NCBI GenBank assembly: GCA_965202585.1
Contig: OZ241831.1
Coordinates: 50,158,001 to 50,222,000 of the forward strand
DNA length: 64,000 bases
Direction: 5' to 3'
Source: Thalia democratica
Lineage: Eukaryota
Part shown: piece by piece, positions 18,201 through 64,000 of the stretch
Layout of the letters: each line of letters starts with the position of its first letter
How positions within the stretch are numbered: position 1 is the stretch's first letter
The notes under the pieces: model-generated
What the model was told of the DNA's origin: nothing
The model's database searches: none
What the model saw: only the letters and a program-made list of their open reading frames with translations
Position numbers and translations under genes: made by a program

Positions 18201-19417
18201 TTTCATTTCAAAACACAGTAAGTGGTAAAAAAACTTTTGCACACAAAATTTACTTTAAACATCAAAGTCTTTTTACGGTTTTGAAAATTATCAATTTTAT
18301 GATTAATTAGTATATAAATGTATAAGTATAACTTTATCGAGACCGCAAATATTTTTTACTAAGTTAACAAGCCATAAATACGTCTCAATAGACCATAAAC
18401 TTGAAATACATATACGTTTTTACTAGTTAAAGTTATCATAATATAAAAAGCTCTTGTCTATGTAAGGACAATATGTTTTTTAAATAAATTTTCTTTTTGT
18501 TAGTTGTTGAAGTTTGTATAAAAACAATTGTAAAACTTTTATTTGTTTTGCTTATAACTTGATAAAATTGAAGTGAAAAGTTATAAAAGTTTGAATATTT
18601 TTTTCAAATATTTTACTTTAAAAAAATTTAATTTAAATTTTACCAGCACTAAGTACTTTGATAGTAATAGAAAGAGTTTTAAACGTAAGTTAACTATTAT
18701 TTGAAACTATTTAGTTAAATATAATGCTTAATACATAACATTTATGACTAGTATATATATCTAATTAGTAATTAAAAGTGTTGTTTCAAGAGTATATTGT
18801 ATGTTTCAATTCAAAAAACACTTATTTACGCAGAAATGTGTGAGTACAAACTAAAATTAAGTGTTAAAATTTCTTAATTTATATAGCTTTATTTATATTT
18901 TTTGAATAACTGATAAATTATACAAATAACGTTTAATGCAATTTACGATAACACTGATGTTTCCAATTACGTTTTATTATTTTTCTCATTAGTGCTTTCT
19001 ACAAAATTATTAAAAATACTGTAAAGTTTTGTACGTTTTGCGCAACATTTTGTACTACAAAGTACAAAGAAAAACAATATTTTTTAATCTTTCATATTAT
19101 TTTGAGATTAAAACACTACTTGTGTGATACTATATAAAAATTAAAGTGGTATAAATATGAATATTAAGTCGTTTTTAGTTAATTTAATGAATAAACGTTG
19201 AGAAATAAAACTTATATAAATAGTATATTGCAAAAATAGAACTAATAGAGTTTATTTTATTTTATTTTTACATTCTATTTAAATTTACTTAGAATTTTAA
19301 ATCTACAGTCTATTACTATCAATAATACTACAGTTAGATTAATGCTTAAAGCTTTGTTTTTCTAAAAAAACAGCAAAAACAGATTAACAAGTAAAGTTTC
19401 ACTCTACTACCTAAATG

Positions 19418-21511
19418 GGGTGGGTGTCACTTTTGCACGAGCGTCACTTTTGCACGAAGGGTCACTTTTGCACGAGGGGACACTTTTGCACGGCGACTCT
19501 TTTGCACGAGCGTCACTTTAGCATGAGGGGACACTTTTGCACGGCGTCACTTTTGCACGCAGGGTCACTTTTGCACGAGGGGACACTTTTGCACGGCGAC
19601 TCTTTTGCACGACTGTCACTTTTGCACAAGGGGACAATTTTGCACGGCGACACTTTTGCACGGAGGGTCACTTTTGCACGATGTGACATTTTTGCACGGC
19701 GTGACTTTTGCACGAGGAGACACTTTTGCACGGCAAATTTTCTTTACGATGACAATTTTCTACAGCAGCATTGTTGCACAACGTCACATTTTTACGATGA
19801 AATTTTTGCACAGCGACATTTTGGCAAGATGAATTTTTTGTACGGAAAATCAATTTTGCATTCAGGCCGATTAAAAGTTGTTTAGCTATTACCAAGTCTG
19901 TAACATAAAAAGAAACTGAAAACCAAAATTTTATAATACACCTATATTAAAGGCAAAAATGAAAGATCTAAAACCTTAAACATTAAATGTTAATGTTAGA
20001 AACAAACTAACGAAAAGATAACATAAAATTATTTATAAAAGATTCATACCAGGGACAATAAAATTATTTTATTTAGAAACTAGGATAAAAATATATTAAG
20101 TGTAGGTAAGTTGTTCTAGTTTATTTTAAGTTTTAATATATTAATCAACAACGAGGCCTTTTTATATATTTTACAAATTTATTGTTCATATGATGAACCT
20201 AGGCATCAAAACCTAGACCACTTAAACTGGAAGACACATAAAGAAAAAATGAAAAAACACATACAATTTATTAATTAAAACAAAAACAAAAACATAATTT
20301 GATATAAAATTTATAGGTTATCATAAAAAGCAAAATTTTAACCACTAACTTATATTTATTTACGCTTTGATGTAGAACGATCAACATAAAGTATTTAAAT
20401 GCATTGACTAACAACAAAAATAAAAACCTAACGCTCCAAGGACATTAACGTTAGGCTCTCATTGGCTTATTTCCTGATCATGGAATGCTGGTTTAAGCAT
20501 CTCTTGATGCTTGTGATGAACATAAGTTCAATCTTCCAAATTTTACTCTCCCATTAACTTATCATGATCATGCAACATTATTGTAACGAAATAATCTAAG
20601 TTTAAATAATGAAAATGCGCTATTTTATTGTTTTTTTTATTCTCACGCTAAATTATAAAATAAAAATAAACATCAGGTGAAATCTGAAATAACTTTACAC
20701 TTCATAAACTAACTAAATCTATATTTTTAATTTAACAATTCTTTGAAATAAAAATAACTTTAAAATATATTTTTTAGCAGCTATATAATGCTATTTACAA
20801 CATCAAGAGAAAATAAGTAAAAATAATACTCAAAATTCGTGTTCTAAAGCATTACTAAATTAAGTTTATTTTTCTGTTTAAAAAGTAACAAAATTCAGAT
20901 TATTTTGATTTAATGTATTTAAAGTTGTTTTTATTCAAAATTAAAAATATGTATTCAACTAGTTTATTTAAATTAAGCTAATAAATATAAATTAATGAAT
21001 TGTGGTACGTTGTTACATTGTTCTACGTAAAAATTCAAATAAAAACTTTACAATAATATTTCATTAAAAAAGTACCACATTTTATTTAATCAAAACAACT
21101 TGCGTTTAAAAGCAAAGATTATTTAAGTTTAAAAGAAAAAAAAACTATTCAAAAAAAATGTCGCCGTGCAAAAGTGTCACATCGTGCAAAAGTGACCCTC
21201 TGTGCAAAAGTGTCGCCATGCAAAAGTGTCCCCTCGTGCAAAAGTGACAGTCGTGCAAAAGAGTCGCCGTGCAAAAGTGTCCCCTCGTGCAAAAGTGACA
21301 GTCGTGCAAAGAGTCGCCGTGCAAAAGTGTCCCCTCGTGCAAAAGTGACAGTCGTGCAAAAGAGTCGCCGTGCAAAAGTGTCCCCTCGTGCAAAAGTGAC
21401 CCTGCGTGCAAAAGTGACGCCGTGAAAAAGTGTCCCCTCGTGCTAAAGTGACGCTCGTGCAAAAGAGTCGCCGTGCAAAAGTGTCCCCTCGTGCAAAAGT
21501 GACCCTTCGTG
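19418..21511. mobile_element. Foldback-like element copy 2, right TIR truncated
   Basis: Same left TSD ACCTAAATG (19409-19417); similarity stops at GACCCTTCGTG (21511), about 86 bp short of the element end. Confidence 0.85.
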
Positions 21512-21733: not shown

Positions 21734-22435
21734 TAATAAGTAATAATAAGTCCCGCTATCAGCCGAGATCGGCTATGCGTGTTGTGCACAGAGAATAAAA
21801 AACAAAAAATTACATGTTAAAAAAAAAACATACACAGTGATGCAATAAACAAAACACAAACACAAAAAACAATTAAATTCATTCTGCTTCTTATTTCTTC
21901 ATCTTCTTCTTCGTTTTTCTAAAATATTCCTTTTCTCTTTCTTGCAGTCTTTTGTGTATAGTTGATCTCTATTTGGCACGGTCATTTGCAAGCAACTCCC
22001 AATCATCAGTTCCAATGTTCAAGCTTTTTAGGTCGCGCTTGCATACATCCTTAAAACGTAATTTTGGACGTTTCGTTTGCCAACGACCAACTCGCCATAC
22101 AATAGAAACTTTGGGATCCGCTCAGTATTCATTCTCAGGATATGACCGAGCCAGCGAAGCCTGCGCTGACTGAGGGTAAAGTACATAGTGGTAAGACCAG
22201 TACGTCTCAATACATCCTCATTGGTGATCTTTTGCTGCCATGTAATTCCAAAGATGCGACGAAGGCATCGTAGGTGGAAGGTATTGGTTTTCTTCTCCTG
22301 TACGCTAGGTAACGTCCATGTCTCGCTACCGTAAAGCAGAGTACTGCAGACACAGGAACGGTAAACGTTAGCCTTTGTTCGAATGCTTAGCTTTTGGTTA
22401 TCCTAAACTCTTGCAGTCAAGCGAGCGAAAGTGCC
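21734..22435 (-). mobile_element. RTE-clade non-LTR retrotransposon 3' fragment (post-RT C-terminal region, 3' UTR and TTA-type tail), decayed
   Basis: - strand translates to ...TLLYGSETWTL...FHLRCLRRIFGITWQQKITNEDVL...RRLRWLGHILRM...RIPKFLLYGEL...[frameshift ~22070]RPKLRFKDVCKRDLK, motifs typical of RTE LINEs; internal stops; 3' hairpin AGCCGA-TC-TCGGCT followed by TTATTATTAC tail; cut by the gap. Confidence 0.9.
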
Positions 22436-22635
22436 NNNNNNNNNNNNNNNNNNNNNNNNNNNNNNNNNNNNNNNNNNNNNNNNNNNNNNNNNNNNNNNNN
22501 NNNNNNNNNNNNNNNNNNNNNNNNNNNNNNNNNNNNNNNNNNNNNNNNNNNNNNNNNNNNNNNNNNNNNNNNNNNNNNNNNNNNNNNNNNNNNNNNNNNN
22601 NNNNNNNNNNNNNNNNNNNNNNNNNNNNNNNNNNN
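22436..22635. other. Assembly gap (200 N)
   Basis: Run of exactly 200 N. Confidence 1.
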
Positions 22636-25600
22636 CAGTTTCGTCCTTATTAGTACTCATCAAGCAGGCGTAGCCGCGAGAAACTGCTGTTGAGATCATT
22701 GTTTATTAACATGATTTTACTTGAAATACCTTTTTTTAGAAAAATAAAGCGCCTTATACAACAACTAAGTGCAAAACACAACAAAAAATATTAAAAGACC
22801 TAGGCATTATAAAAATTTGTATTTATCTAGCTCTCATATGTATCTAAATGTACGAAATAATCTATTTCTGAAAAAAATAACTATTGGCGCGAGTTAAAAT
22901 ACAAATGTACATTAATATGATTTAATGATTAATGTGATGTAATAGTCTTTAAATAAAGTTTGAGTGTAAATTGTACACTTAAAAAAGTATCCAGTTTTTT
23001 TCTGGGTTGTCAAAAGTTTTATGTAAATGCCATCCAGGTTTAAAAAAAATTAGTTTATCGGACCACTTTAAAGTATAAAATTAAACTTAAGTTTAAAAAA
23101 ATATCTTAATATTGAGATAAAAAGATACTGTAAAACGTTCAAATAAGTTTTTTTAATGAAGAATAAGTTTAATGATATAAACACTTTTTATCCAACTGAA
23201 ATTTCCTTACTTTTTATATAAAATAGTTTGACATTTCTGATTTTTTAGTGATTTTAGTTAGAAACTCGACGTTTTTTTGTCTAATTTGTCAAATTCCTGG
23301 TTTTTCCTATTTTCCAGGTATTTTGCAACACTGTTTCTTGATACAATCTTTTTAAAAATGACACAATAATGAATAACTCTTGAAAAACGTAATTAAAGTA
23401 CATAGAGAATAGAAAGCAAAATCACAACGATATAAGTAACATAGTCCTTTGAATAATCATTTAACATCATAACAAAAAAAATTAAGACAAAACATAACAA
23501 TAACTACAGTGGATTTCAGACTAATTCACACATAATTTTGTATATAACCTTAAACAAATTTAACTCAAGCTGTCAACCCTACAACAAACTATTTAATAAC
23601 TTTATGCTAATAAGAGTTAATAAAATAATTGAAGAAAAATATAAAACAAAAAACAATCACTTTTAACGATTAATTAAAGTTTTACATAACTTGAAATGAC
23701 TCAGATTTTAAAACTGAATAAACAAACGTTTAAGAAAACACTCAACAGTAAATTCATCTAAATAAAGGTACCGGAATCAAAAACGAAATTGACAAACAAA
23801 AAACATACAAACTACAGCCGTAATCTGTTTTAAAAATTAAATTGAAACATTAGGTACAAACTTAAACTAAAGGCAGAACAGTTTTGCTTTTAATAATGAA
23901 TCATATAAACTTACAATCTGTCTTATTATCTTCTCAATCTAATTTTAAAGTTAAAAACTATTAGAAGCTTATACCTTATTATTTTCTTAGTTACAGCTAA
24001 GAAACTGATCTATTTCTTTTTTTAAGTCTACTAATGAACATGAATCTAAACATATTTGTACATTTTTGTCTTGACAGTTTACTTCTAATACTTAACTCAC
24101 ATTTTCGAAAAAGACAGTTGCAAAAATCGTCTGGTGCCCATGGATTAGTGAATCTTTCCAGGTTCCATCCAATATCGTCACTGCTCTGTTAAAATAAAAC
24201 TATATTACTTACTATTGTTACTCAAAGTTAAACTTTTTCAAAGAAGGTAGTTGAAATAAGTATGAATTTTATTTTTAACATTATAAAAAAAAAATACATA
24301 AGTATAAAAATGACAACAAACAAAAAATTCAGATTTTCTATTAATTAAGCTGTGAGAGATGTTGTGCTAGTTTAATTATTATGTAATTTAAACATAATTT
24401 TGTTGCTGAATGTTTTATTCTACAATTTTAATTTTGCCGTGAAATTTAATGTGCAAGTTCAGAAATAGATAGGACACCAATTTAATTACTTTGCACACTA
24501 CCAAGTAGTTATATAAAATAAATTGTTTAAACTTTTGATTGCAAGGAAAATACTTAAAAACCTGATGGAAAAGAAATCAATAACGTTTTGATACAAAAAA
24601 AATAACAGAAATACATAACAAAGTTTGTTAAAAGTTAAGTAAGTGATGAACTAGAGCAGGACTTTAAGTGATAACTTATCAGTCAATTACCAACAACTTT
24701 AAGCACTAAGGGCAGAAGAAGCAGTTTAGATCATAAGATGTATTGCATGCCAAGACTTAAAAACACTTCTTTATTAAAAGACCATGGCGTTTGAAACATT
24801 CTAACAGACAACTTCGAGGACTTCAGTTAAAAAATAACAAATAGAATAACGCAAACACCATTGAATAAACACCTTATCTTACAACATAAATATTTTATTC
24901 TAAACTGATTTAATACTTAAACACTTATTGTAATGATAGGATAAGTAATAAAATAAATTGTTTTGCTAGTTTAATAAACTAAAAAAAAATCCAAAAACTA
25001 AGCAAACGGAGAATTCGGAAGTACTTTGTAGAGCAATGAGTGGCTTGAATAAAAAAATAACTAAAAATATATGTTCCTTCATTTTAGTTTTAAGTAATTC
25101 ACTTCAAATTTTCAGGAAACATCCCTTTATAATATTGCGATTAAAGTAAAAGAGGTGGAATTATGAAAAAAATATAGACGAAAATAGATAAAGATTTTTT
25201 TTTCTAATCAACAGATCAATAGAAAATCCTTTTTTACCAGTTGTTCAAAATTTATTAAATAGTTCTCAGAACAGTTTCTGAAATGATTGCTCAAAAACTG
25301 TAGGATGAGAAATGTTTTAAACGAATTAATCTACTTTTACCTTTTTAATTTGCATCTCCCACTAGGAACCTAGTAAACTCTTTAACTTTGATCTTTTTTT
25401 TTATCAAAACTACTTAAATTTCTTGAAGTCACTGGTAGCTTAATCATTTATGTAAAAAAAAACATTAATCCAAAGTGTTTAGCCCCTGTGCCCTTAACAT
25501 TATATTTAATTGATGAAGTAAAAATACTATTTTGCAGTTTAATATCTAGTAGAATATTACACATATGGTATAATGTTATTAAACTTAAAATTCATGATTC

Positions 25601-28600
25601 TGATTAATTTATATACCATTAAGTCTAGTCAGGTTTATTTGTGTTTATACTAGTTATCTGAAAGATTATAAAATTTTGTTAAGCTTAAATAAAAGAAAAG
25701 TGTTCAAACACTTGTGGCTAATAATAATCTTAAAGCTTCTTTAATAAACACAATAAAAATATTTTCTGTAATTTGTGTTTAGAAATTAAAAAAGAATTTA
25801 TTTTATTTTAGAAATTAAACTTTAGATAGACTTTATTAATTAACTAACTAATAATGAAAAGGTTGCAGTCAAAAGCCATCTCAAAATGGAGTTAAGATTT
25901 TCAATGTCATCACATTTGTAAGCTGTTAAAAAATAATTAGTTTGCAATGTAAAAGTGAACTAAAAGGTAATATTTAAAAATTAAGCATTGCCCTTAAAAC
26001 ATATGAGAACAAAATCTAAAATTATATTCAACAATTTGAAGTGGAGATATACTTCTTATCAGAATGTGATTTGAATGCAACTTTTGATTTAAACGTTGTT
26101 TTAGAGCAGTGCCTTCCAAAGAATGGGAAAAATTGTCTTTTGTGAGGATTGGCAATATAAAGTAAGGGGGTCAAAAAAAAGAGATTTAAAAACATTGTTT
26201 AAATATCATTGTTAACTCGATTTGCTCAAACAAAATTTAACAACAATATCTTAAATGTCATAATTTATATATAGAAGAGTCGTTATATTATATTATAACT
26301 AAAGATTTTAGTTATAAATATTAAATAATAAATCAGTTTTAATTTTAGAATAAATTTACAAATACTTTTATTCAATAAAAAATATTAGTTTACAGAATTA
26401 TCGACTATATAAAACTTTCTTATGAGTATATGTCTCTGCCAAACTAATTAATGAAATAATTATTAGTTGAACAAAAAACTTAAAAAACAGTTTGGCCACA
26501 AGTTTTTTTTTTGAAATTTCTTCAAGGTTCTTAAAAGTACACAATTTTTTGTATATTTTAAGTTTGAAATAAAGTTTAGGGTAAAGAACTGTCTATCATT
26601 ATTGAAAAGATGTGTTAAACCTACTTCAAATGTATTTTTTGATGAAAAAAGCTTTTGATGATAAGAAATTATGTTATCTAGACCATAGGTTTTTTTATCA
26701 AACTGAAGTTTTACTACTTTACATGTTAACAATTTTTTAATTTCCAGGTTTTTTAGTGATATAAGTTTAAAATTTCCTTCAAGATTTCTCAACTTTCAGG
26801 TTTTTTTAGCCTTAACTGTCACATTCAACATTTTTCTAGGATTCCAGGTTAAGTGGCAACCCTAATTCTTGATGTAGAAAAAAGTCTGTCCTGAGAATTT
26901 TAAAAGTCCTGAAACTATCCTGAGATCAGGATTGCCACTTGTTTTTTTAATTTTTTTTCAGGTTTTCCAAGTTTCTTCCAGGTTTTTAAAAGTACATATT
27001 TTTGGGTCTATTTTTAGTTTTAAGTTAGGTAAGTAAGGTAAGAAAACTGTGTTAAATTGTATAAAAACATCAAAAAGATACTGAAAGCTACTTTTATTCC
27101 CTTATTTAATATAGAAATTTTTTATGATGACAAAAAATGTTTATCTATGCAAAATATTTTTTGTTTTAAATTAAACATGTTAAAACTGTTTAAAATTCCA
27201 GGTTTTTTGCTTAATATTCCAGCTTTTTTTTGCCCAAATTGTCAAATTCCAGGTTTTTCAAGGTTTCCAGGTAAAGTGGCAACCCTGTGAGGTTTTCATA
27301 AAAAATCATAACTGTCCTCAGTCATCCTGGATTTTAAAAAAGTTAAAATATTCTGAGTTACCATAAGTCATTCTGAGATTTACTAGGATTATAAAATATC
27401 CTGAGTACCCTAAATGTGTGGCCAACCTGTCATTTTCTTGTTCATTAAATGTTTTAGCATAGTGGTTATAAAAAGACATAAACTTTTTGACTATTATTGT
27501 TTTTACAGAGAAAATATATTTTCTGAATAATTGTGGCATGTAACTTGATTAGTATCAGCCATTAAAATTGTTTTAAATTTGCAAAACAACTAGGAATTTT
27601 TTCTGACCATTTCTAAATTTAAATACGAGGCTAATTAATATTAAAATATAAAACAGTTATGATTAATTTATAAAAAATTTTGATAAAATTATTCAAATAA
27701 AATTATTTTATCAATTGTGTGTATCAAATAAAGATTTAAAGTACATTATAATGATATTTACTATTAAATTATAGAAAACATTACCATATCACAATATTTT
27801 TGTTATCATTAATATTAACTACAATGATAATACTTACCTTTGTCACAGATATAAAATGGATGGCACCTATTTTAAGTCTATTTACAATATTTAGACTAGA
27901 AAATATGTGGGAAATAACAAATAGTCTCAAAGCAGTCGTGATAAACTAGGTACTTCAAGGATAGAAAATAAATTATTTTTATGTTTTAACAAACCATAAA
28001 CTAAAAATATTAGCTTGTCAATTAGGATAAACCATTTTTTGTACATGTTTAAATTAAAATAATAATTTGAAACAATTTTTTACATGCAATTTAAGTTCTT
28101 TAATGTTCAACTGATTACTCTAGAATAAGTTACTAAACTGAGTTGTAAAAAATTTACGACCGTATAACAATTGCATAAAAGTTAAATGTTTTACGTTTTT
28201 TCTTTTTACGTTTTTCTAAAATATATTATTAATGATTAGTTTGAAGTTTGAAACACTAGAATTTGAAAACGCTAAAAACGCAGTACATTTGTTGTATTTT
28301 AATTTAAATAAACCATGCTGACTCAAAAAAAATTCAAAAATTTTGTACAGACGACAAAAGCAATAATAATATCCTAAAAAAATTGAACTTTTTATAAAAT
28401 TGTTGTCAAATGGCTAGAAAAAAAATAACGCGAAACTTTGTTTTATTTTAGTTTGAAATATTCGGTAAAAAAATGAAAAAGTCGGTAAAAGTTTTTTAGA
28501 GCCAAGCCTGTGCCACGAGACAAACTCAAGTTGTTAGTTAGAAGCAAGTTTAAGTAAGCTTTTGGTAAACTGTAACTTGGATTTCGTTTTTATTGAATAC

Positions 28601-31426
28601 TGTCAGTCACACCTAAATGTCAGCCAGTTACATCTAAAAACATTTTGTTCGTCAGTCTACAAACAGCTTAATTATATTTTATAACATTTTTTAAATACTT
28701 AGTGTAGCATTTAAACTGAGTAAAAGAAAGACATCCGTTAAAATTGTTTTCTTGTTGCAACAAACAAACTTTGTAGAAGTAAATTCAACATTCAACTGTT
28801 TTTGTTTATAATTTATAATTATTTCGATGTTAACACTTCTATAAATTTGAAGTTTTATAAAAACTGAACTTGTCTACCTACTTATTATTTTTATGATTAA
28901 ATGTTACAATGTGATATTTATATAAACTCACAAAAATGATTTTTACTTAATTAATTTTATTTTGATTTTTATTTTACTTGATTAATGAGTTTTTAACCTA
29001 CTACATATAAGTAAAACATAATTCAATTTTTATCGTTTTACTTTGGCTTTATATTAATAGAACATGATTTTTAAACAAAAGTTTGTTTTAAATAAAGTAA
29101 GTTTATTTGAAATAGCTTAAACATTACAAACTAAATTACATCGAAAATAACATACCGCGGCAAATATATTATAAGTAAGCCCCTTAAATAAGTAACGTGT
29201 AATAAGGTGTAAAATAAAATACTATAATTTTAAATTTCGTTTTTCATTAGGAAATAGTATAATACGTTTTTCATTATTGCTTTTATCCTTAATGCTGTAA
29301 GATGTTTACATTTTAACTGATTTTATGTCAGCATACAATACATTAATACAGAGGTTGTTTTTGAAATTTAAATTAATCGTAAAACTTATTTTAAATATTT
29401 ACTTTGACATTGCATATTTTTTAGCTGTGGCTTAATTTTTTAAAACATACACTTATTTTAAATAAACATTTAAAAATTGATTTATAAATGCTATATCAAA
29501 CTATAAGTTTTGCTACTTTCTTATACATAGTAATTTACAAAATGTATAATACATTTTCTAGTACAAAATGAATTTCAGCATAAAGTAAATGTTCTTAATT
29601 TTTTAGATATAAAACTATAAAAATGACACTAAGTTTTGATAAAAGCAATTTGCAAATTTAAAACGTTGGAGTTGACCTTTAAAATTATCGCACCTTTGGA
29701 ATTTTGAGATTGTTTTAAAGATTAACTTTCGTTTAAGTACAATTTACACCAGTTTACAAACAATGAAAAGTCTTGTATTTGAAAAAATCCTTGACCGAAC
29801 GCTTACAACATTTGCCAGTTGTTAAAGTAAATTGCTTGAAAGCTTATAGTTAATACTTTGATTAGTATATTTCTATTAAGACAATAATTGCAGTATTTAT
29901 TTAAAATACGAAACTATTTTATACAGCTGGACGGTTTTAAATTAAACTTAAAAACCTCAAAATATCAAGTAATTAGCTTTGCAAAAAAGTTGTTTAATTT
30001 TGTTTCGCTCTTAAAACAACACTCATAAAAAACTGTTTTTAAGAGTTTAAAGACATAAACAAAGCAAACAAAACTTGAAAATGATTGTTTTATTTTCTTT
30101 ATGTTAACCAGAATTTTTCAACTCTGTTTGAACCACTTTGCAGTTATCTTATTACCAGATGGTCAAATAAATTTCCCCTGCACTGATAGAAGAGTTTTCA
30201 TTAGTAACTTTTCATTTCAAAACACAGTAAGTGGTAAAAAAACTTTTGCACACAAAATTTACTTTAAACATCAAAGTCTTTTTACGGTTTTGAAAATTAT
30301 CAATTTTATGATTAATTAGTATATAAATGTATAAGTATAACTTTATCGAGACCGCAAATATTTTTTACTAAGTTAACAAGCCATAAATACGTCTCAATAG
30401 ACCATAAACTTGAAATACATATACGTTTTTACTAGTTAAAGTTATCATAATATAAAAAGCTCTTGTCTATGTAAGGACAATATGTTTTTTAAATAAATTT
30501 TCTTTTTGTTAGTTGTTGAAGTTTGTATAAAAACAATTGTAAAACTTTTATTTGTTTTGCTTATAACTTGATAAAATTGAAGTGAAAAGTTATAAAAGTT
30601 TGAATATTTTTTTCAAATATTTTACTTTAAAAAAATTTAATTTAAATTTTACCAGCACTAAGTACTTTGATAGTAATAGAAAGAGTTTTAAACGTAAGTT
30701 AACTATTATTTGAAACTATTTAGTTAAATATAATGCTTAATACATAACATTTATGACTAGTATATATATCTAATTAGTAATTAAAAGTGTTGTTTCAAGA
30801 GTATATTGTATGTTTCAATTCAAAAAACACTTATTTACGCAGAAATGTGTGAGTACAAACTAAAATTAAGTGTTAAAATTTCTTAATTTATATAGCTTTA
30901 TTTATATTTTTTGAATAACTGATAAATTATACAAATAACGTTTAATGCAATTTACGATAACACTGATGTTTCCAATTACGTTTTATTATTTTTCTCATTA
31001 GTGCTTTCTACAAAATTATTAAAAATACTGTAAAGTTTTGTACGTTTTGCGCAACATTTTGTACTACAAAGTACAAAGAAAAACAATATTTTTTAATCTT
31101 TCATATTATTTTGAGATTAAAACACTACTTGTGTGATACTATATAAAAATTAAAGTGGTATAAATATGAATATTAAGTCGTTTTTAGTTAATTTAATGAA
31201 TAAACGTTGAGAAATAAAACTTATATAAATAGTATATTGCAAAAATAGAACTAATAGAGTTTATTTTATTTTATTTTTACATTCTATTTAAATTTACTTA
31301 GAATTTTAAATCTACAGTCTATTACTATCAATAATACTACAGTTAGATTAATGCTTAAAGCTTTGTTTTTCTAAAAAAACAGCAAAAACAGATTAACAAG
31401 TAAAGTTTCACTCTACTACCTAAATG

Positions 31427-33607
31427 GGGTGGGTGTCACTTTTGCACGAGCGTCACTTTTGCACGAAGGGTCACTTTTGCACGAGGGGACACTTTTGCAC
31501 GGCGACTCTTTTGCACGAGCGTCACTTTAGCATGAGGGGACACTTTTGCACGGCGTCACTTTTGCACGCAGGGTCACTTTTGCACGAGGGGACACTTTTG
31601 CACGGCGACTCTTTTGCACGACTGTCACTTTTGCACAAGGGGACAATTTTGCACGGCGACACTTTTGCACGGAGGGTCACTTTTGCACGATGTGACATTT
31701 TTGCACGGCGTGACTTTTGCACGAGGAGACACTTTTGCACGGCAAATTTTCTTTACGATGACAATTTTCTACAGCAGCATTGTTGCACAACGTCACATTT
31801 TTACGATGAAATTTTTGCACAGCGACATTTTGGCAAGATGAATTTTTTGTACGGAAAATCAATTTTGCATTCAGGCCGATTAAAAGTTGTTTAGCTATTA
31901 CCAAGTCTGTAACATAAAAAGAAACTGAAAACCAAAATTTTATAATACACCTATATTAAAGGCAAAAATGAAAGATCTAAAACCTTAAACATTAAATGTT
32001 AATGTTAGAAACAAACTAACGAAAAGATAACATAAAATTATTTATAAAAGATTCATACCAGGGACAATAAAATTATTTTATTTAGAAACTAGGATAAAAA
32101 TATATTAAGTGTAGGTAAGTTGTTCTAGTTTATTTTAAGTTTTAATATATTAATCAACAACGAGGCCTTTTTATATATTTTACAAATTTATTGTTCATAT
32201 GATGAACCTAGGCATCAAAACCTAGACCACTTAAACTGGAAGACACATAAAGAAAAAATGAAAAAACACATACAATTTATTAATTAAAACAAAAACAAAA
32301 ACATAATTTGATATAAAATTTATAGGTTATCATAAAAAGCAAAATTTTAACCACTAACTTATATTTATTTACGCTTTGATGTAGAACGATCAACATAAAG
32401 TATTTAAATGCATTGACTAACAACAAAAATAAAAACCTAACGCTCCAAGGACATTAACGTTAGGCTCTCATTGGCTTATTTCCTGATCATGGAATGCTGG
32501 TTTAAGCATCTCTTGATGCTTGTGATGAACATAAGTTCAATCTTCCAAATTTTACTCTCCCATTAACTTATCATGATCATGCAACATTATTGTAACGAAA
32601 TAATCTAAGTTTAAATAATGAAAATGCGCTATTTTATTGTTTTTTTTATTCTCACGCTAAATTATAAAATAAAAATAAACATCAGGTGAAATCTGAAATA
32701 ACTTTACACTTCATAAACTAACTAAATCTATATTTTTAATTTAACAATTCTTTGAAATAAAAATAACTTTAAAATATATTTTTTAGCAGCTATATAATGC
32801 TATTTACAACATCAAGAGAAAATAAGTAAAAATAATACTCAAAATTCGTGTTCTAAAGCATTACTAAATTAAGTTTATTTTTCTGTTTAAAAAGTAACAA
32901 AATTCAGATTATTTTGATTTAATGTATTTAAAGTTGTTTTTATTCAAAATTAAAAATATGTATTCAACTAGTTTATTTAAATTAAGCTAATAAATATAAA
33001 TTAATGAATTGTGGTACGTTGTTACATTGTTCTACGTAAAAATTCAAATAAAAACTTTACAATAATATTTCATTAAAAAAGTACCACATTTTATTTAATC
33101 AAAACAACTTGCGTTTAAAAGCAAAGATTATTTAAGTTTAAAAGAAAAAAAAACTATTCAAAAAAAATGTCGCCGTGCAAAAGTGTCACATCGTGCAAAA
33201 GTGACCCTCTGTGCAAAAGTGTCGCCATGCAAAAGTGTCCCCTCGTGCAAAAGTGACAGTCGTGCAAAAGAGTCGCCGTGCAAAAGTGTCCCCTCGTGCA
33301 AAAGTGACAGTCGTGCAAAAGAGTCGCCGTGCAAAAGTGTCCCCTCGTGCAAAAGTGACAGTCGTGCAAAAGAGTCGCCGTGCAAAAGTGTCCCCTCGTG
33401 CAAAAGTGACCCTGCGTGCAAAAGTGACGCCGTGAAAAAGTGTCCCCTCGTGCTAAAGTGACGCTCGTGCAAAAGAGTCGCCGTGCAAAAGTGTCCCCTC
33501 GTGCAAAAGTGACCCTTCGTGCAAAAGTGACCCTCGTGCAAAAGTGTCCCCTCGTGCAAAAGTGTCTTCGTGCAAAAGTGACGCTCGTGCAAAAGTGACC
33601 CGTTCCC
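31427..33607. mobile_element. Foldback-like element copy 3, complete
   Basis: TSD ACCTAAATG at 31418-31426 and 33608-33616; same TIRs as copy 1. Confidence 0.85.
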
Positions 33608-34214
33608 ACCTAAATGATCTAAAAACTGAAGAGTTTTTGGTAAATATGTTGCTCTACATTAAAAAAAAAAGTATACAAATATATTTTCATCTGTTACAGT
33701 ATAATTTAAAAGAATAAAACTTATAAAACTTAAGCGTCCTGGACAACACGTTAGACTGTATCCAAGTAGTGTGCGACTCGATAACCGAGTGTTTTTTGTT
33801 CACCAGGTCAAAGGACTAAATATTTTAACACTTTCTTTGTCGTTTAATGAACTCTAAACATTAACATACTAAATAATTTTTTAGTTGATTTTAAAACATA
33901 CATCGTAGTAAAAACAAATATGGACATTTTTGCTAAAAAGTACATATAATTTTAAAGTGTTATTATCTAAAATTTTGTTAAGAAAAAAAAAAAAAAAAAA
34001 CAAGCTTATTAAAAAAAAATTTTTTTGAATAAACACTTATTTTTTCAAGAAGAACAGTAAAAATTACACCAAAGCTGTTTTTGACAGTTACTGAAGTTTT
34101 ATAAAAAACGTACTTTAGCTCTAACTATAGTTAAAAAGCAATATTTTTATTTTTTTTTTGTTTTTAATAAAACTTATAAACAACGTAGCAAACTCTATAC
34201 AACAAAAGTGTAAA

Positions 34215-35377
34215 ATGAACGTCAAAGACAAACTAGAAGCTCTTCTCCTAATCGAGAGAACGGACACAATCCAAAACATCTTCAGATCCTCCACGAACGA
34301 GGCATAGAAGAACTGTACGAAACAATTGCAAAGTACTTCAAATTGGTGCTGAAAATTCACTCCGAAGTGCGAGCCGGCTCCGGAACGATGAAATTTTACC
34401 TGAAGAAGCTGATGCGCGAAGTCATGTCTTCCATGCTCGATTATTGCAACAAGATAAAATCTGTGAGGAGTTTCAGCGGGGTCGGCGTTACGTTCGGTTT
34501 CGAGCGGTTCCGAGTCAGCTTCGACTTCAGCGGCTGCAAGACTCTCATCTCGTCAGAAGATCTTCAAAAGATGCACGAGCTCACGAACAGCGTCGACTCA
34601 GTTGAAATGAGGTTCACCGAAGGGAGTTTCTTCGACAAAACGGCGTCCGGATTGGTTGAAATAGAGCGCGAGTGGGGCAGGCAACGGGCGTTCAAGAGGT
34701 ACCTCGAGTCGCTGCTGATCCGGTGCGAGAAACTGAACAACGTCAGAAAGCACCACGAAAAGTACATTGCCGAGCAGAAGAATTTCAAGCAGTTTTGCCG
34801 CGGCGTGGCGCTGAAGGAAGAGCACAATCGAATGCAGAAAGTCGCTTGGGAGTAGGTTTACAGGAAGGAGGGGGAAGCCAAGCTGGAGAACGTGTTCATC
34901 GGGTACTTTTCGTTTTTTCAAAAAATTTTCTTTGTGCAGAGCAGCTTGAGAGAAGAAGACAGGATCGCGCCCAATGGTTATTCTGTGAAGATCAACAACG
35001 AGTTGGACGCGGCTTCGGAAGCGTTTAAAAAGTTCAGTTCGGACAACGAGTTCTTTTTGAACAACGCCGCAATCAAGCCGAACTTTTTAGTGGACGAACT
35101 GCTAGGTTATGAGATAAACGCCGGCAACGTACGCAACTTTTTCAACCACCGTGTGGCGCACGTGAGCAACTATTCACCCGACTACGAGTTCGACGTTCGA
35201 AACATGGTCCGTTTCGTCAACGGGGAGAGCGGAATGAAGTCCATGGTGCCTTAGGTGCAGCGGGTGAGCAGGAAGCTCACTGCAGGTAATAACTGCAAAA
35301 TTTGCTTGAGTGAAGCAGAACGGGAGTTGAACTTGCTGAACAGCAAATACGACTTTGAAAACATTAAGTTGAATTAA
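34215..35377 (+). pseudogene. Progenitor orphan gene, second copy with the same three lesions
   Basis: Identical to 2877-4039 at offset +31338. Confidence 0.8.
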
Positions 35378-35474
35378 AACAATAACTTTCAAAGTTTTTT
35401 TTATTTAATTAATAACTAAATTTCATCAATGATAAGCTAAGTAAGTATTTAGATTTTTGCAATAAGAACTTATC

Positions 35475-36586
35475 ATGCGCCAAGGTGGCCAAGTGCGCCA
35501 AGTCGCATTGTCTATTGATTTTATGTTGCTATAGAAATTCATTAGAACTCATAAGAAATCAATGCGTTTCGACACTGTTTCGAGGTCGTATGTTCATCGT
35601 TTTCATAAACGCCTCTTGTTTTCTTATCGAAGTAGCTATGCCGAAGCTAGTATATATACGCGTCAGTTCGGTTGGAAGTGTGAATTTGTGTGCAAAATTC
35701 CACAGAAAGAGAGCTCATATATTCGAAAAGAAGAGAATTATGCAAATTTTCGGACACAATTTTTGAATGATTTTGAGTCTACACCTGAAAGAGTTAGTGA
35801 AATCGACTGCGCAGAAACGAGTTTCACCGAAGGGAGTTTCTTCGACAAAGCGGCGTCCGGATTGGTTGAAATAGAGCGGGAGTGGGGCAGGCAACGGGCG
35901 TTCAAGAGGTACCTCGAGTCGCTGCTGATCCAGTGCGAGAAACTGAACAACGTCAGAAAGCACCACGAAAAGTACATCGCCGAGCAAAAGAATTTCAAGC
36001 AACTTTGCCGCGGCGTGGCGCTGAAGGAAGAGCACAATCGAATGCAGAAAGTCGCTTGGGAGTGGGTTTACAGGAAGGAGGGGAAGCCAAGCTGGAGAAC
36101 GTGTTCATCGGGTACTTTTCGTTTTTTCGAAAAATTTTCTTCGTGCTGAGCAGCTTGAGAGAAGAAGACAGGATCGCGCCAAATGGTTATTCTGTGAAGA
36201 TCAACAACGAGTTAGACGCGGCTTCGGAAGCGTTTAAAAAGTTCAGTTCGGACAACGAGTTCTTTTTAAACAACGCCGCCATCAAGCCGAACTTTTTAGT
36301 GGACGAACTGCTAGGTTATGAGATAAACGCCGGCAACGTACGCAACTTTTTCAACCACCGTGTGGCGAACGTGAGCAACTATTCGCCCGACTACGAGTTC
36401 GACGTTCGAAACATGGTCCGTTTCGTCAACGGGGAGAGCGGAATGAAGTCCATGGTGCCTGAGGTTCAGCGGGTGAGCAGGAAGATCGCTGCAGGTAACA
36501 ACTGCAAAATTTGCTTGAGTGAAGCAGAACGAGAGTTGAATTTGCTGAACAACAAATATGATTTTGAAAACATTAAGTTGAATTAA
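35475..36586 (+). pseudogene. Array unit 1, frameshifted (1,209-bp type)
   Basis: Same three indels as 4137-5248. Confidence 0.75.
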
Positions 36587-36683
36587 AACAATAACTTTCA
36601 AAGTTTTTTTTATTTAATTAATAACTAAATTTCATCAATGATAAGCTAAGTAAGTATTTAGATTTTTGCAATAAGAACTTATC

Positions 36684-37805
36684 ATGCGCCAAGGTGGCCA
36701 AGTGCGCCAAGTCGCCAAGTCGCATTGTCTATTGATTTTATGTTGCTATAGAAATTCATTAGAACTCATAAGAAATCAATGCGTTTCGACACTGTTTCGA
36801 GGTCGTATGTTCATCGTTTTCATAAACGCCTCTTGTTTTCTTATCGAAGTAGCTATGCCGAAGCTAGTATATATACGCGTCAGTTCGGTTGGAAGTGTGA
36901 ATTTATGTGCAAAAAGTCCAGAGAAAGAGAGCTCATATATTCGAAAAGAAGAGAATTATGCAAATTTTCGGACACAATTTTTTAATGATTTTGAGTCTAC
37001 ACCTGAAAGAGTTAGTGAAATCGACTGCGCAGAAACGAGTTTCACCAAAGGGAGTTTCTTTGACAAAGCGGCGTCCGGATTGGTTGAAATAGAGCGGGAG
37101 TGGGGCAGACGACGGGCGTTCAAGAGGTACCTCGAGTCGCTGCTGATCCAGTGCGAGGAACTGAGCAACGTCAGAAAGCACCACGAAAAGTACATTGCCG
37201 AGCAGAAAAAGTTCAAGCAATTTTGCCACCATATGGCGCTGAAGGAAGAGCACAATCGAATGCAGAAAGTCGCTTGGGAGTGGGTTTACAGGAAGGAGGG
37301 GGGAGCCAAGCTGGAGAACGTGTTCATCGGGTACTTTTCGTTTTTTCGAAAAATTTTCTTCGTGCAGAGCAGCTTGAGAGAAGAAGAAAGGATCGCGCCA
37401 AATGGTTGTTCTGTGCAGATCAACAACGAGTTGGACGCGGCTTCGGAAGCGTTTAAAAAGTTCAGTTCGGACAACGAGTTCTTTTTGAACAACGCCGCAA
37501 TCAAGCCGAACTTTTTAGTGGACGAACTGCTAGGTTATGAGATAAACGCCGGCAACGTACGCAACTTTTTCAACCACCGTGTGGCGTACGTGAGCAACTA
37601 TTCACCCGACTACGAGTTCGACGTTCGAAACATGGTCCGTTTCGTCAACGGGGAGAGCGGAATGAAGTCCATGGTGCCTTAGGTGCAGCGGGTGAGCAGG
37701 AAGCTCACTGCAGGTAATAACTGCAAAATTTGCTTGAGTGAAGCAGAACGGGAGTTGAACTTGCTGAACAGCAAATACGACTTTGAAAACATTAAGTTGA
37801 ATTAA
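36684..37805 (+). pseudogene. Array unit 2, premature TAG (ORF 36684-37682, 332 aa)
   Basis: Carries the same GAG to TAG stop as the progenitor gene. Confidence 0.75.
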
Positions 37806-39014: not shown

Positions 39015-39111
39015 AACAATAACTTTCAAAGTTTTTTTTATTTAATTAATAACTAAATTTCATCAATGATAAGCTAAGTAAGTATTTAGATTTTTGCAAT
39101 AAGAACTTATC

Positions 39112-40233
39112 ATGCGCCAAGGTGGCCAAGTGCGCCAAGTCGCCAAGTCGCATTGTCTATTGATTTTATGTTGCTATAGAAATTCATTAGAACTCATAAG
39201 AAATCAATGCGTTTCGACACTGTTTCGAGGTCGTATGTTCATCGTTTTCATAAACGCCTCTTGTTTTCTTATCGAAGTAGCTATGCCGAAGCTAGTATAT
39301 ATACGCGTCAGTTCGGTTGGAAGTGTGAATTTATGTGCAAAAAGTCCAGAGAAAGAGAGCTCATATATTCGAAAAGAAGAGAATTATGCAAATTTTCGGA
39401 CACAATTTTTTAATGATTTTGAGTCTACACCTGAAAGAGTTAGTGAAATCGACTGCGCAGAAACGAGTTTCACCAAAGGGAGTTTCTTTGACAAAGCGGC
39501 GTCCGGATTGGTTGAAATAGAGCGGGAGTGGGGCAGACGACGGGCGTTCAAGAGGTACCTCGAGTCGCTGCTGATCCAGTGCGAGGAACTGAGCAACGTC
39601 AGAAAGCACCACGAAAAGTACATTGCCGAGCAGAAAAAGTTCAAGCAATTTTGCCACCATATGGCGCTGAAGGAAGAGCACAATCGAATGCAGAAAGTCG
39701 CTTGGGAGTGGGTTTACAGGAAGGAGGGGGGAGCCAAGCTGGAGAACGTGTTCATCGGGTACTTTTCGTTTTTTCGAAAAATTTTCTTCGTGCAGAGCAG
39801 CTTGAGAGAAGAAGAAAGGATCGCGCCAAATGGTTGTTCTGTGCAGATCAACAACGAGTTGGACGCGGCTTCGGAAGCGTTTAAAAAGTTCAGTTCGGAC
39901 AACGAGTTCTTTTTAAACAACGCCGCCATCAAGCCGAACTTTTTAGTGGACGAACTGCTGGGTTATGAGATAAACGCCGGCAACGTACGCAACTTTTTCA
40001 ACCACCGTGTGGCGTACGTGAGCAACTATTCACCCGACTACGAGTTCGACGTTCGAAACATGGTCCGTTTCGTCAACGGGGAGAGCAGAATGAAGTCCAT
40101 GGTGCCTGAGGTGCAGCGGGTGAGCAGGAAGCTCGCTGCAGGTAACAACTGCAAAATTTGCTTGAGTGAAGCAGAACGAGAGTTGAATTTGCTGAACAAC
40201 AAATACGACTTTAAAAACATTAAGTTGAATTAA
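39112..40233 (+). CDS. Array unit 4, intact 373-aa orphan ORF (true start may be Met58)
   Basis: ATG-to-TAA open frame; codons 114-373 homologous to the progenitor gene. Confidence 0.6.
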   Translation: MRQGGQVRQVAKSHCLLILCCYRNSLELIRNQCVSTLFRGRMFIVFINASCFLIEVAMPKLVYIRVSSVGSVNLCAKSPEKESSYIRKEENYANFRTQFFNDFESTPERVSEIDCAETSFTKGSFFDKAASGLVEIEREWGRRRAFKRYLESLLIQCEELSNVRKHHEKYIAEQKKFKQFCHHMALKEEHNRMQKVAWEWVYRKEGGAKLENVFIGYFSFFRKIFFVQSSLREEERIAPNGCSVQINNELDAASEAFKKFSSDNEFFLNNAAIKPNFLVDELLGYEINAGNVRNFFNHRVAYVSNYSPDYEFDVRNMVRFVNGESRMKSMVPEVQRVSRKLAAGNNCKICLSEAERELNLLNNKYDFKNIKLN

Positions 40234-40330
40234 AGCAATAACTTTCAAAGTTTTTTTTATTTAATTAATAACTAAATTTCATCAATGATAAGCTAAGTAA
40301 GTATTTAGATTTTTGCAATAAGAACTTATC

Positions 40331-41452
40331 ATGCGCCAAGGTGGCCAAGTGCGCCAAGTCGCCAAGTCGCATTGTCTATTGATTTTATGTTGCTATAGAA
40401 ATTCATTAGAACTCATAAGAAATCAATGCGTTTCGACACTGTTTCGAGGTCGTATGTTCATCGTTTTCATAAACGCCTCTTGTTTTCTTATCGAAGTAGC
40501 TATGCCGAAGCTCGTATATATACGCGTCAGTTCGGTTGGAAGTGTGAATTTGTGTGCAAAAAGTCCAGAGAAAGAGAGCTCATATATTCGAAAAGAAGAG
40601 AATTATGCAAATTTTCGGACACAATTTTTTAATGATTTTGAGTCTACACCTGAAAGAGTTAGTGAAATCGACTTGGTTGAAACGAGTTTCACCAAAGGGA
40701 GTTTCTTCGACAAAGCGGCGTCCGGATTGGTTGAAATAGAGCGGGAGTGGGGCAGGCAACGGGCGTTCAAGAGGTACCTCGAGTCGCTGCTGGTGCAGTG
40801 CGAGAAACTGAACAACGTCAGAAAGCACCACGAAAAGTACATCGCCGAGCAGAAGAATTTCAAGCAGTTTTGCCGCGGCGTGGCGCTGAAGGAAGAACAC
40901 AATCGAATGCAGAAAGTCGCTTGGGAGTGGGTTTGCAGGAAGGAGGGGGAAGCCAAGCTGGAGAACGTGTTCATCGGGTACTTTTCGTTTTTTCGAAAAA
41001 TTTTCTTCGTGCTGAGCAGCTTGAGAGAAGAAGACAGGATCGCGCCAAATGGTTATTCTGTGAAGATCAACAACGAGTTAGACGCGGCTTCGGAAGCGTT
41101 TAAAAAGTTCAGTTCGGACAACGAGTTCTTTTTAAACAACGCCGCCATCAAGCCGAACTTTTTAGTGGACGAACTGCTAGGTTATGAGATAAACGCCGGC
41201 AACGTACGCAACTTTTTCAACCACCGTGTGGCGAACGTGAGCAACTATTCGCCCGACTACGAGTTCGACGTTCGAAACATGGTCCGTTTCGTCAACGGGG
41301 AGAGCGGAATGAAGTCCATGGTGCCTGAGGTTCAGCGGGTGAGCAGGAAGATCGCTGCAGGTAACAACTGCAAAATTTGCTTGAGTGAAGCAGAACGAGA
41401 GTTGAATTTGCTGAACAACAAATATGATTTTGAAAACATTAAGTTGAATTAA
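40331..41452 (+). CDS. Array unit 5, intact 373-aa orphan ORF
   Basis: Open frame; IDLVET variant. Confidence 0.6.
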   Translation: MRQGGQVRQVAKSHCLLILCCYRNSLELIRNQCVSTLFRGRMFIVFINASCFLIEVAMPKLVYIRVSSVGSVNLCAKSPEKESSYIRKEENYANFRTQFFNDFESTPERVSEIDLVETSFTKGSFFDKAASGLVEIEREWGRQRAFKRYLESLLVQCEKLNNVRKHHEKYIAEQKNFKQFCRGVALKEEHNRMQKVAWEWVCRKEGEAKLENVFIGYFSFFRKIFFVLSSLREEDRIAPNGYSVKINNELDAASEAFKKFSSDNEFFLNNAAIKPNFLVDELLGYEINAGNVRNFFNHRVANVSNYSPDYEFDVRNMVRFVNGESGMKSMVPEVQRVSRKIAAGNNCKICLSEAERELNLLNNKYDFENIKLN

Positions 41453-50082: not shown

Positions 50083-51203
50083 ATGCGCCAAGGTGGCCAA
50101 GTGCGCCAAGTCGCCAAGTCGCATTGTCTATTGATTTTATGTTGCTATAGAAATTCATTAGAACTCATAAGAAATCAATGCGTTTCGACACTGTTTCGAG
50201 GTCGTATGTTCATCGTTTTCATAAACGCCTCTTGTTTTCTTATCGAAGTAGCTATGCCGAAGCTAGTATATATACGCGTCAGTTCGGTTGGAAGTGTGAA
50301 TTTATGTGCAAAAAGTCCAGAGAAAGAGAGCTCATATATTCGAAAAGAAGAGAATTATGCAAATTTTCGGACACAATTTTTTAATGATTTTGAGTCTACA
50401 CCTGAAAGAGTTAGTGAAATCGACTTGGTTGAAACGAGTTTCACCAAAGGGAGTTTCTTCGACAAAGCGGCGTCCGGATTGGTTGAAATAGAGCGGGAGT
50501 GGGGCAGGCAACGGGCGTTCAAGAGGTACCTCGAGTCGCTGCTGATCCAGTGCGAGAAACTGAACAACGTCAGAAAGCACCACGAAAAGTACATCGCCGA
50601 GCAAAAGAATTTCAAGCAACTTTGCCGCGGCGTGGCGCTGAAGGAAGAGCACAATCGAATGCAGAAAGTCGCTTGGGAGTGGGTTTACAGGAAGGAGGGG
50701 AAGCCAAGCTGGAGAACGTGTTCATCGGGTACTTTTCGTTTTTTCGAAAAATTTTCCTCGTGCACAGCAGCTTGAGAGAAGAAGACAGGATCGCGCCAAA
50801 TGGTTATTCTGCGAAGATCAACAACGAGTTAGACGCGGCTTCGGAAGCGTTCAAAAAGTTCAGTTCGGACAACGAGTTCTTTTTGAACAACGCCGCCATC
50901 AAGCCGAACTTTTTAGTGGACGAGCTGCTAGGTTATGAGATAAACGCCGGCAACATTTGCAACTTTTTCAACCACCGTGTGGCGAACGTGAGCAACTATT
51001 CACCCGACTACGAGTTCGACGTTCGAAACATGGTCCGTTTCGTCAACGGGGAGAGCAGAATGAAGTCCATGGTGCCTGAGGTGCAGCGGGTGAGCAGGAA
51101 GCTCGCTGCAGGTAGCCACTGCAAAATTTGCTTGAGTGAAGCAGAACGAGAGTTGAATTTGCTGAACAACAAATATGATTTTGAAAACATTAAGTTGAAT
51201 TAA
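50083..51203 (+). pseudogene. Array unit 13, -1 frameshift in the G-run
   Basis: Split ORFs 50083-50775 and 50499-51203. Confidence 0.7.
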
Positions 51204-61045: not shown

Positions 61046-61738
61046 ATGCGCCAAGGTGGCCAAGTGCGCCAAGTCGCATTGTCTATTGATTTTATGTTGC
61101 TATAGAAATTCATTAGAACTCATAAGAAATCAATGCGTTTCGACACTGTTTCGAGGTCGTATGTTCATCGTTTTCATAAACGCCTCTTGTTTTCTTATCG
61201 AAGTAGCTATGCCGAAGCTAGTATATATACGCGTCAGTTCGGTTGGAAGTGTGAATTTGTGTGCAAAATGTCAGAGAAAGAGAGCTCATATATTCGAAAA
61301 GAAGAGAATTATGCAAATTTTCGGACACAATTTTTTAATGATTTTGAGTCTACACCTGAAAGAGTTAGTGAAATCGACTGCGCAGAAACGAGTTTCACCA
61401 AAGGGAGTTTCTTCGACAAAGCGGCGTCCGGATTGGTTGAAATAGAGCGGGAATGGGGCAGGCGACGGGCGTTCAAAAGGTACCTCGAGTCGCTGCTGAT
61501 CCGGTGCGAGGAACTGAACAACGTCAGAAAGCACCACGAAAAGTACATCGCCGAGCAGAAGAATTTCAAGCAATTTTGCCGCGGCGTGGCGCTGAAGGAA
61601 GAGCACAATCGAATGCAGAAAGTCGCTTGGGAGTGGGTTTGAGGAAGGAGGGGGAAGCAAAGTTGGAAAACGTGTTCAGAACGAAAGTTGAATTTGCTGA
61701 ACAACAAATACGACTTTGAAAACATTAAGTTGAATTAA
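61046..61738 (+). pseudogene. Array unit 22 (790-bp unit), 5' frameshifts, TGA stop and ~420-bp internal deletion
   Basis: Junction AACGTGTTCA|GAACGAAAGTTG at ~61678. Confidence 0.8.
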
Positions 61739-63054: not shown

Positions 63055-64000
63055 ATGCGCCAAGGTGACAAGTGCGCCAAGTCGCCAAGTCGCATTGTCT
63101 ATTGATTTTATGTTGCTATAGAAATTCATTAGAACTCATAAGAAATCAATGCGTTTCGACACTGTTTCGAGGTCGTATGTTCATCGTTTTCATAAACGCC
63201 TCTTGTTTTCTTATCGAAGTAGCTATGCCGAAGCTCGTATATATACGCGTCAGTTCGGTTGGAAGTGTGAATTTGTGTGCAAAAATTCCAGAGAAAGAGA
63301 GCTCATATATTCGAAAAGAAGAGAATTATGCAAATTTTCGGACACAATTTTTTAATGATTTTGAGTCTACACCTGAAAGAGTTAGTGAAATCGACTGCGC
63401 AGAAACGAGTTTCACCGAAGGGAGTTTCTTCGACAAAGCGGCGTCCGGATTGGTTGAAATAGAGCGCGAGTGGGGCAGGCGACGGGCGTTTAAGAGGTAC
63501 CTCGAGTCGCTGCTGGTTCATTGCGAGAAACTGAACAACGTCAGAAAGCACCACGAAAAGTACATCGCCGAGCAGAAGAATTTCAAGCAGTTTTGCCGCG
63601 GCGTGGCGCTGAAGGAAGAGCACAACCGAATGCAGAAAGTCGCTTGGGAGTGGGTTTACAGGAAGGAGGGGGAAGCCAAGCTGGAGAACGTGTTCATCGG
63701 GTACTTTTTGTTTTTTCGAAAAATTTTCCTCGTGCAGAGCAGCTTGTGAGAAGAAGACAGGATCGCGCCAGATGGTTGTTTTGCGAAGATCAACAACGAG
63801 TTAGACGCGGCTTCGGAAGCGTTTAAAAAGTTCAGTTCCGACAACGAGTTCTTTTTAAACAACGCCGCCATCAAGCCGAACTTTTTAGTGGACGAACTGC
63901 TAGGTTATGAGATAAACTCCGGCAGCATACGCAACTTTTTCAACCACCGTGTGGCGAACGTGAGCAACTATTCACCCGACTACGAGTTCGACGTTCGAAA
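63055..64000 (+). pseudogene. Array unit 24, 5' -1 frameshift and premature TGA (63747-63749), cut by the window end
   Basis: GGTGACAAG instead of GGTGGCCAAG; AGCTTGTGA instead of AGCTTGAGA. Confidence 0.7.

Follow-up and report, generated by a model that had tools for sequence, protein, structure and literature searches.

Uniform leader and variable RING-less core in a tandem array of Thalia democratica

A head-to-tail array of at least 24 units was analysed in Thalia democratica, in which a nearly uniform leader precedes a variable coding core. This array is probably a partial gene duplicate that was joined once to a recruited leader and amplified in tandem, with a core that would have imported old paralogue variation by gene conversion. 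The pattern itself is real and statistically strong, and its explanation lies mostly in ordinary recombination. The window analysed is the whole stretch of 64,000 nucleotides at positions 50,158,001 to 50,222,000 of the forward strand of contig OZ241831.1 (assembly GCA_965202585.1); all coordinates below are those of this window.

Array layout and the diversity of its two parts

Units of about 1219 bp (U01 to U24) occupy positions 35378 to 64000 of the plus strand and continue past the window end. U24 is cut by this end and U22 is internally deleted, about 420 bp of its core being missing at 61677-61678. An intact open reading frame (ORF) of 371-373 aa was found in 14 of the 24 units and a broken one in the other 10; in U10-U14 one frameshift, shared and amplified, breaks five consecutive units. 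The array contains no N, and the single gap in the window, of 200 N, lies at 22436-22635. Immediately upstream of U01, a leaderless copy designated G0 (34215-35377, plus strand) forms the head of the array. A second copy of the locus (1-5884, plus strand) comprises a foldback-like element, a copy of G0, one unit (Ua1) and a truncated unit (Ua2). It is 99.56% identical to 31339-37227, with its first 4039 bp differing at 2 positions. It breaks off inside the core of Ua2, which is a mosaic of its own, and is followed by a short 14-bp tandem repeat (5884-5936).

The flanks in the window have about 24% GC, and the scaffold is AT-rich and eukaryotic. No neighbouring genes were recognised in the window, and nine flank ORFs gave no Pfam match at the cut-off. 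An element of about 2.2 kb (approximately 97-2266 and 31435-33604, with a truncated copy at 19426-21511) ends in inverted arrays of a 17-18 bp repeat, is flanked by a 9-bp direct repeat and sits about 600 bp upstream of G0; we take it to be akin to foldback or Mutator-like elements. The 200-N gap is flanked by a 10.9-kb stretch at 99.99% identity (10627-21511 and 22636-33521), probably an uncollapsed contig overlap of the assembly. Beside the gap, a fragment on the minus strand (21900-22402) resembles the C-terminus of the reverse-transcriptase ORF found in LINE elements, presumably of the RTE type, without Pfam support. A long hairpin at 7566-7901, with weak miRNA-model scores that were all below gathering thresholds, is followed by three 76-bp tandem repeats and adjoined by a GC-richer stretch (approximately 6900-7500) without Pfam match.

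Each unit carries a leader block of 434 bp and a core of 785 bp. In U04 the block is made up of an AT-rich spacer (39015-39111, unit positions 1-97) and the leader proper (39112-39448, unit positions 98-434; 38% GC, pi 0.005), followed by the core at 39449-40233 (49% GC, GC3 0.69, pi 0.037), all on the plus strand. Comparison of U04 (39015-40233) with the adjacent U05 (40234-41452) gave 3 differences in the 434 bp of the leader block (0.69%) and 37 in the 785 bp of the core (4.71%), close to the figures of about 3 and about 39 that an earlier note had reached by manual comparison. Across the 22 complete units, a set that leaves out U22, U24 and both units of the second locus, pi was 0.006 in the leader and 0.037 in the core. 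Segregating sites numbered 12/434 and 101/785, respectively (Fisher p = 4e-10), and 10 distinct leader and 16 distinct core haplotypes were counted. Haplotype tables were used in place of separate leader and core trees because the leader has just 12 variable sites. Comparison by 100-bp windows, following the sliding-window check suggested in the note, separated the two parts fully: the leader maximum (0.012) lay below the core minimum (0.018), every core window being more diverse than every leader window. The note's statement that the contrast holds along the array stands for 15 of the 23 adjacent pairs, which show 17-39 core differences, and fails for the other eight, which are recent duplicates with 0-10 core differences.

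A change-point fit, made without using the homology boundary, placed the step in diversity at unit position 440 (interval 422-441), and homology to G0 begins at about 435. Beyond the 3' junction diversity falls again (5/97 vs 101/785, p = 0.03). Within the core, diversity is spread over the full length with no hypervariable region, and variants are found as near as about 10 bp to either junction (positions 441-445 and 1199). Adjacent variable sites were not significantly clustered (18 vs 12.9 expected, p = 0.07). Synonymous diversity was 0.081 in the core and 0.012 at the synonymous sites of the leader ORF, so that protein constraint on the leader is no explanation and the two parts differ in age, not in constraint alone. 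The premise of the note, that spacers should diverge faster than coding DNA, needs leader and core to be equally old, and the data speak for unequal ages.

The contrast was repeated in six chimeric proteins from ENA records. In these, the leader showed 0-1 differences in 55-71 residues and the core 6-12 differences in 193-261 residues for long pairs, or 1-4 differences in 69-93 residues for pairs that include a short protein. Their cores are mostly absent from the window, and neither of the two window units that were queried was identical to any of them. These records speak against an assembly artefact in the window, with the reservation that contigs built from short reads may be chimeric too.

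Origin of core and leader

The core of U04 corresponds to residues 131-389 (approximately) of a 491-aa RING-H2 family protein, P0002, followed by a novel two-residue tail and a stop. Only the middle of the parental ORF was copied, the parental N-terminus and the RING being missing from the units. With the 373-aa unit ORF as query, four relatives were found among 1645 candidates. P0002, with 84% identity across the core, carries a helical region at its N-terminus and a RING-H2 domain at its C-terminus (PF13639, residues 439-486, 43.2 bits, above the Pfam cut-off). A RING match was obtained in 10 of 12 aligned family members; none was obtained in U04, in the scanned stretches of G0 or in the chimeric proteins P0006 and P0008. 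The intact relatives are RING-H2 E3 ligases with a C-terminal RING, whereas the array units and G0 lack it. A profile search against 1.84 billion representatives added two remote relatives that span the full domain, P0015 and, at 26% identity to P0002, P0014; the remaining matches listed in this search mainly covered the RING.

The N-terminal 430 or so residues of the family matched no Pfam family at the cut-off and no Atlas cluster, ESM Atlas giving no usable match for P0002 1-425 or P0014 1-430. Two AlphaFold runs on the parent reached a mean pLDDT of 38.4 and 47.7. In neither BFVD nor PDB did Foldseek, run with the low-confidence model of mean pLDDT 47.7, find a match at E ≤ 0.001; matches to this model were weak throughout, and a fold search on it says little. 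The viral-origin check of the intronless, GC-rich parent, with 0 BFVD matches at E ≤ 0.001, was made with this same model (pLDDT 47.7). The parental family is one of intronless, orphan RING-H2 ligases with an unmatched N-terminal domain. A literature survey by title or start of abstract, selective in its coverage, yielded nothing about this family or architecture. Four RING-bearing relatives (P0004 and P0011-P0013) all start at MALKEE, the methionine of which is also present as an allele in U02, U04 and U06; this start may mark a shorter natural variant of the family protein.

In the array, one 434-bp block separates successive cores and stands in for both the RING and the N-terminus. The leader was found in 24/24 units, and both junctions are common to all of them. 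Compared with P0002, the leader peptide gave a best E of 4.5 and no similarity to the parental N-terminus, and a diverged family N-terminus was rejected. The non-array part of the window held no real match to it. When 38 candidate proteins (197-2000 aa) were searched, only P0001 matched, which is the chimeric cluster itself; an origin as a piece of another known protein was set aside on this result, weak evidence given that proteins of at least 197 aa were covered. Similarly, a reading of the leader as a small-RNA gene, the core then being its spacer, was rejected, as Rfam gave no match to the array up to E 0.1 (window 1-41500) and the leader showed neither a tRNA nor a stable RNA fold (z-scores 1.06 and -0.36); a lineage-specific unstructured RNA would escape these searches. 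A transposon with terminal repeats was rejected as well, no long terminal inverted or direct repeats being present. Codon-position bias is absent from the leader (p = 0.51) and pronounced in the core (p near 0). The leader looks like recruited non-coding DNA.

In U04 the leader is open and in the core frame from the ATG at 39112. The leader reading frame is open over 115 codons in the core frame, a length matched by 3 of 5000 shuffles (p = 0.0006). Neutral recruitment would leave such a frame unexplained, which makes it the main reason against dismissing a function. The leader also contains TATATATA at 39299-39315, with TCAGTT 8-14 bp further on. This pair resembles a TATA and initiator pair, but its spacing is too short, and the three in-frame ATGs of the leader (39112, 39235 and 39283 in U04) are all upstream of it.

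Recombination and exchange with leaderless copies

The common junctions show a single fusion event, in which a 434-bp block unrelated to the gene was joined to the copied middle of the ORF. Repeated independent capture, as put forward in the earlier note, is unlikely with the same two junctions in all units. Unequal exchange then produced unit and two-unit duplications, its breakpoints often falling inside the core and giving rise to mosaics. U05 (plus strand) is a mosaic in which unit positions 435-900 are those of U07-U09 and positions 901-1219 are identical to U01/U03. Four-gamete incompatibility increases with the distance between sites, 8% growing to 45% (permutation p = 0.0002), and a minimum of 23 recombination events was obtained for 17 distinct cores.

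As a third step, gene conversion would have carried paralogue variation into the core. For G0 this step is shown. The N-terminus of G0 is parental (78% identity to P0002 over 103 aa) and is followed by the core, with a 3' end that is RING-less as in the units. G0 is a pseudogene, with a frameshift near codon 25 and two in-frame TAG stops, and its two copies are the only leaderless copies within the window. It lies inside the diversity cloud of the cores: it differs from the units at 31-44 positions, the units differ from each other at up to 45, and just 6 of its alleles are absent from all units. So few private alleles may reflect exchange in both directions, or G0 may simply be the first member of the array. 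U02 is a patchwork of U04 and G0 (runs p = 1e-5). U04-type alleles occupy its first 31 informative sites; of the final 12, 11 are of the G0 type, the G0 stop codon among them (37487-37785, plus strand). Ua1 agrees with U01 at 32 of 34 informative sites; the other two, which are adjacent, are G0 alleles and form a short conversion patch (4791-4804, plus strand).

Exchange with the parent is confined to the homologous region, as seen in the G0 tracts of U02 and Ua1 and in the step at the homology boundary. One proposal of the earlier note, that recombination has placed older variants of the family behind a fixed leader, is supported by the tracts in these two units and by the allele matches to intact relatives given below, and the leaderless donor it had suggested looking for was found within the window in G0, a donor-type copy that exchanged tracts with both. 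Conversion would be limited to the core because older family members, which have no leader, share homology with this part alone. The leader would exchange only with its own young copies and so stay uniform. The contrast would thus be one of age, not of mutation rate, and no dedicated machinery would be needed.

Older exchange partners of the cores are suggested by protein patches. U24 carries a patch, DGCFAKIN (63768-63789, plus strand), identical to the distant intact relative P0003. U23 (62706-62714, plus strand) and U13 (50952-50960) have NIC instead of NVR, as do P0003 and P0004, and all four read NICNFF. Of 63 minor amino-acid alleles, 21 matched intact relatives (null 7-10%, p = 7e-7), a count inflated by cases where the minor allele is the ancestral one and open to recurrence of tolerated residues; in a stricter test, 12 of 57 sites had both alleles represented in relatives (p = 0.012). 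We infer that intact paralogue donors lie outside the window, from protein matches to ENA records that may belong to other species; the 64-kb window holds no intact RING-bearing donor. Counting against this explanation are also the few private alleles of G0 and the position of variants, which lie nearer the junctions than would be predicted for tracts that have to resolve within the homologous part.

Core variants that reach the junctions fit an alternative in which the array is old, leader and core are equal in age, the cores diverged in place and one leader haplotype recently spread by biased conversion or promoter selection. This is the most serious alternative, though an unlikely one. It predicts the same pi contrast, and purifying selection on the cores would fit formerly functional gene units, just as the open leader frame would fit a leader that matters. 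However, it gives no reason for the step to coincide with both homology boundaries, leaves unexplained the patches identical to a relative that is only 69% identical overall, and has to contend with low diversity also in the AT-rich spacer and at synonymous sites. We infer that the leader is young, and not that it swept through older units.

Selection, function and comparable systems

For the core, dN/dS was 0.33 by counting and 0.38-0.43 by codon models with kappa estimated, the likelihood being 15.5-19.4 units better than at dN/dS = 1; tree-based values are biased by recombination. Ratios of 0.33-0.43 indicate variation filtered in working genes, not made by a mutator, and under the conversion explanation the imported paralogue variation would already have passed purifying selection. 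The earlier note had also considered that the core is being actively diversified; the codon-model values and the lack of a sequence-context hotspot do not support this.

The predicted unit protein comprises the central helical domain but no RING, and so could not ligate ubiquitin. If made, it would most plausibly compete with the intact ligase for substrate binding; if not, the array would be a decaying by-product. A functional variant library, in which selection would maintain diversity among the RING-less cores, be it to supply sequence that diversifies an intact ligase or to provide a panel of decoys that differ in what they bind, is improbable. It would fit the 16 distinct cores in 22 units with their heavy mosaicism, the 14/24 intact ORFs with an open leader frame, and the additional core variants in independent records. 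It is at odds with a dN/dS well below 1, the lack of a hypervariable region, the amplification of broken units up to five in succession (U10-U14), and the presence of a leader on each unit with no expression site seen. The cassette library of the earlier note, taken as functional, is likewise not supported, since every unit has its own leader and 10/24 are broken.

Targeted mutagenesis (DGR, AID/APOBEC, RIP) leaves a base- or context-specific mutation spectrum. Hypermutation of the core, targeted or composition-driven (CpG decay, deaminase, error-prone retro-copying), has very little to recommend it. Transitions do account for 73 of the 101 segregating core sites (A/G 42, C/T 31), and GC and CpG are higher in the core than in the leader. 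The contrast persists, however, at non-CpG sites (10/395 leader vs 69/644 core segregating, p = 4e-7) and at A/T sites (6/286 leader vs 47/399 core), and CpG or GC mutability was rejected as the cause, including the CpG hypermutability alone that the note had named. No depletion of CpG was seen, the observed/expected ratio being 1.24 for the core, 1.42 for leader positions 98-434 and 0.89 for the flank. C-to-T polymorphism was found at 26 of 130 CpG positions and at 47 of 300 others, the 5' base showing no preference and the context profile being flat; there is no nonsynonymous excess (dN/dS 0.38-0.43), and core alleles are shared with intact relatives. Least credible of all is an assembly artefact in which consensus or polishing collapsed leaders or shuffled cores: the 200-N gap with its flanking 10.9-kb repeat marks the region as hard to assemble and single patches, e.g. 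that of Ua1, could be polishing errors, but 10 leader haplotypes in 22 units imply that leaders were not collapsed, the independent ENA proteins with cores not in the window show the same contrast, and no N occurs in the array.

Known systems share parts of this architecture. In Drosophila melanogaster, Sdic is described as tandem copies from a neighbouring parental gene with rampant gene conversion (PMC7475035). Conversion with the parental gene sw is limited there to one part of the repeat, differences between copies are mostly 3', and 3-5 protein types per strain are given, with positive selection at the C-terminus. Sdic, as described there, resembles the array in that parental conversion is confined to part of the repeat. 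In the array, by contrast, intronless copies number at least 24, the 22 complete units carry 16 different cores that diverge by 4-5%, dN/dS stays below 1 and the leader has no identified source gene.

For C. elegans fog-2/ftr-1 and Drosophila Hun, a review (PMC3449122) reports that part of a gene and recruited non-homologous sequence formed a new ORF, and that parental conversion acts across the homologous region only, leaving the recruited part untouched. The array fits partial duplication with recruitment, as in fog-2 on that account. In fog-2/Hun, as presented there, conversion keeps the homologous part near one parent, whereas in the array several diverged partners would make the core variable; moreover, the unit is amplified at least 24-fold and both its ends are replaced by one block.

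In Arabidopsis RPP8 (10.1101/694240), paralogue exchange raises diversity and gives shared polymorphism in the homologous region; the copies are full-length immune receptors, and balancing selection was needed for their diversity. Interlocus gene conversion is also given as a source of diversity in human segmental duplications (PMC10172114). The array is like RPP8 in having paralogue exchange as a source of diversity within the homologous region.

The likeness to Pneumocystis msg, a constant leader joined to variable mosaic coding sequence, is superficial. For msg-I (UCS, CRJE), leader and promoter are described as single-copy and about 80 genes as silent and leaderless (PMC10622565). In the array, unlike in that description, the leader is on every unit and the leaderless copy in the window is the pseudogene G0. 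Of the features of cassette switching, mosaic coding sequence is thus present, the leader is multi-copy (24/24), and the window holds two G0 pseudogene copies in place of an archive of intact leaderless cassettes.

In the conversion explanation, the array is a natural example of how interlocus conversion would raise diversity exactly within homology boundaries. The old, mosaic core would have an internal clock in the young leader next to it, and in one haplotype the tracts received from a neighbouring leaderless copy can be seen. There is a slim chance that the array is an expressed and selected young family, which would combine a de novo 112-codon leader with the substrate-binding middle of an orphan E3 ligase. 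If so, it would comprise two dozen RING-less decoys with specificities refreshed by conversion from intact paralogues, or copies that would feed variants back into the intact ligase. Such a system would be a conversion-fed repertoire for ubiquitin-ligase specificity, e.g. in immunity or genetic conflict, and the importance of the array would be much greater if its RING-less products are expressed and under selection.
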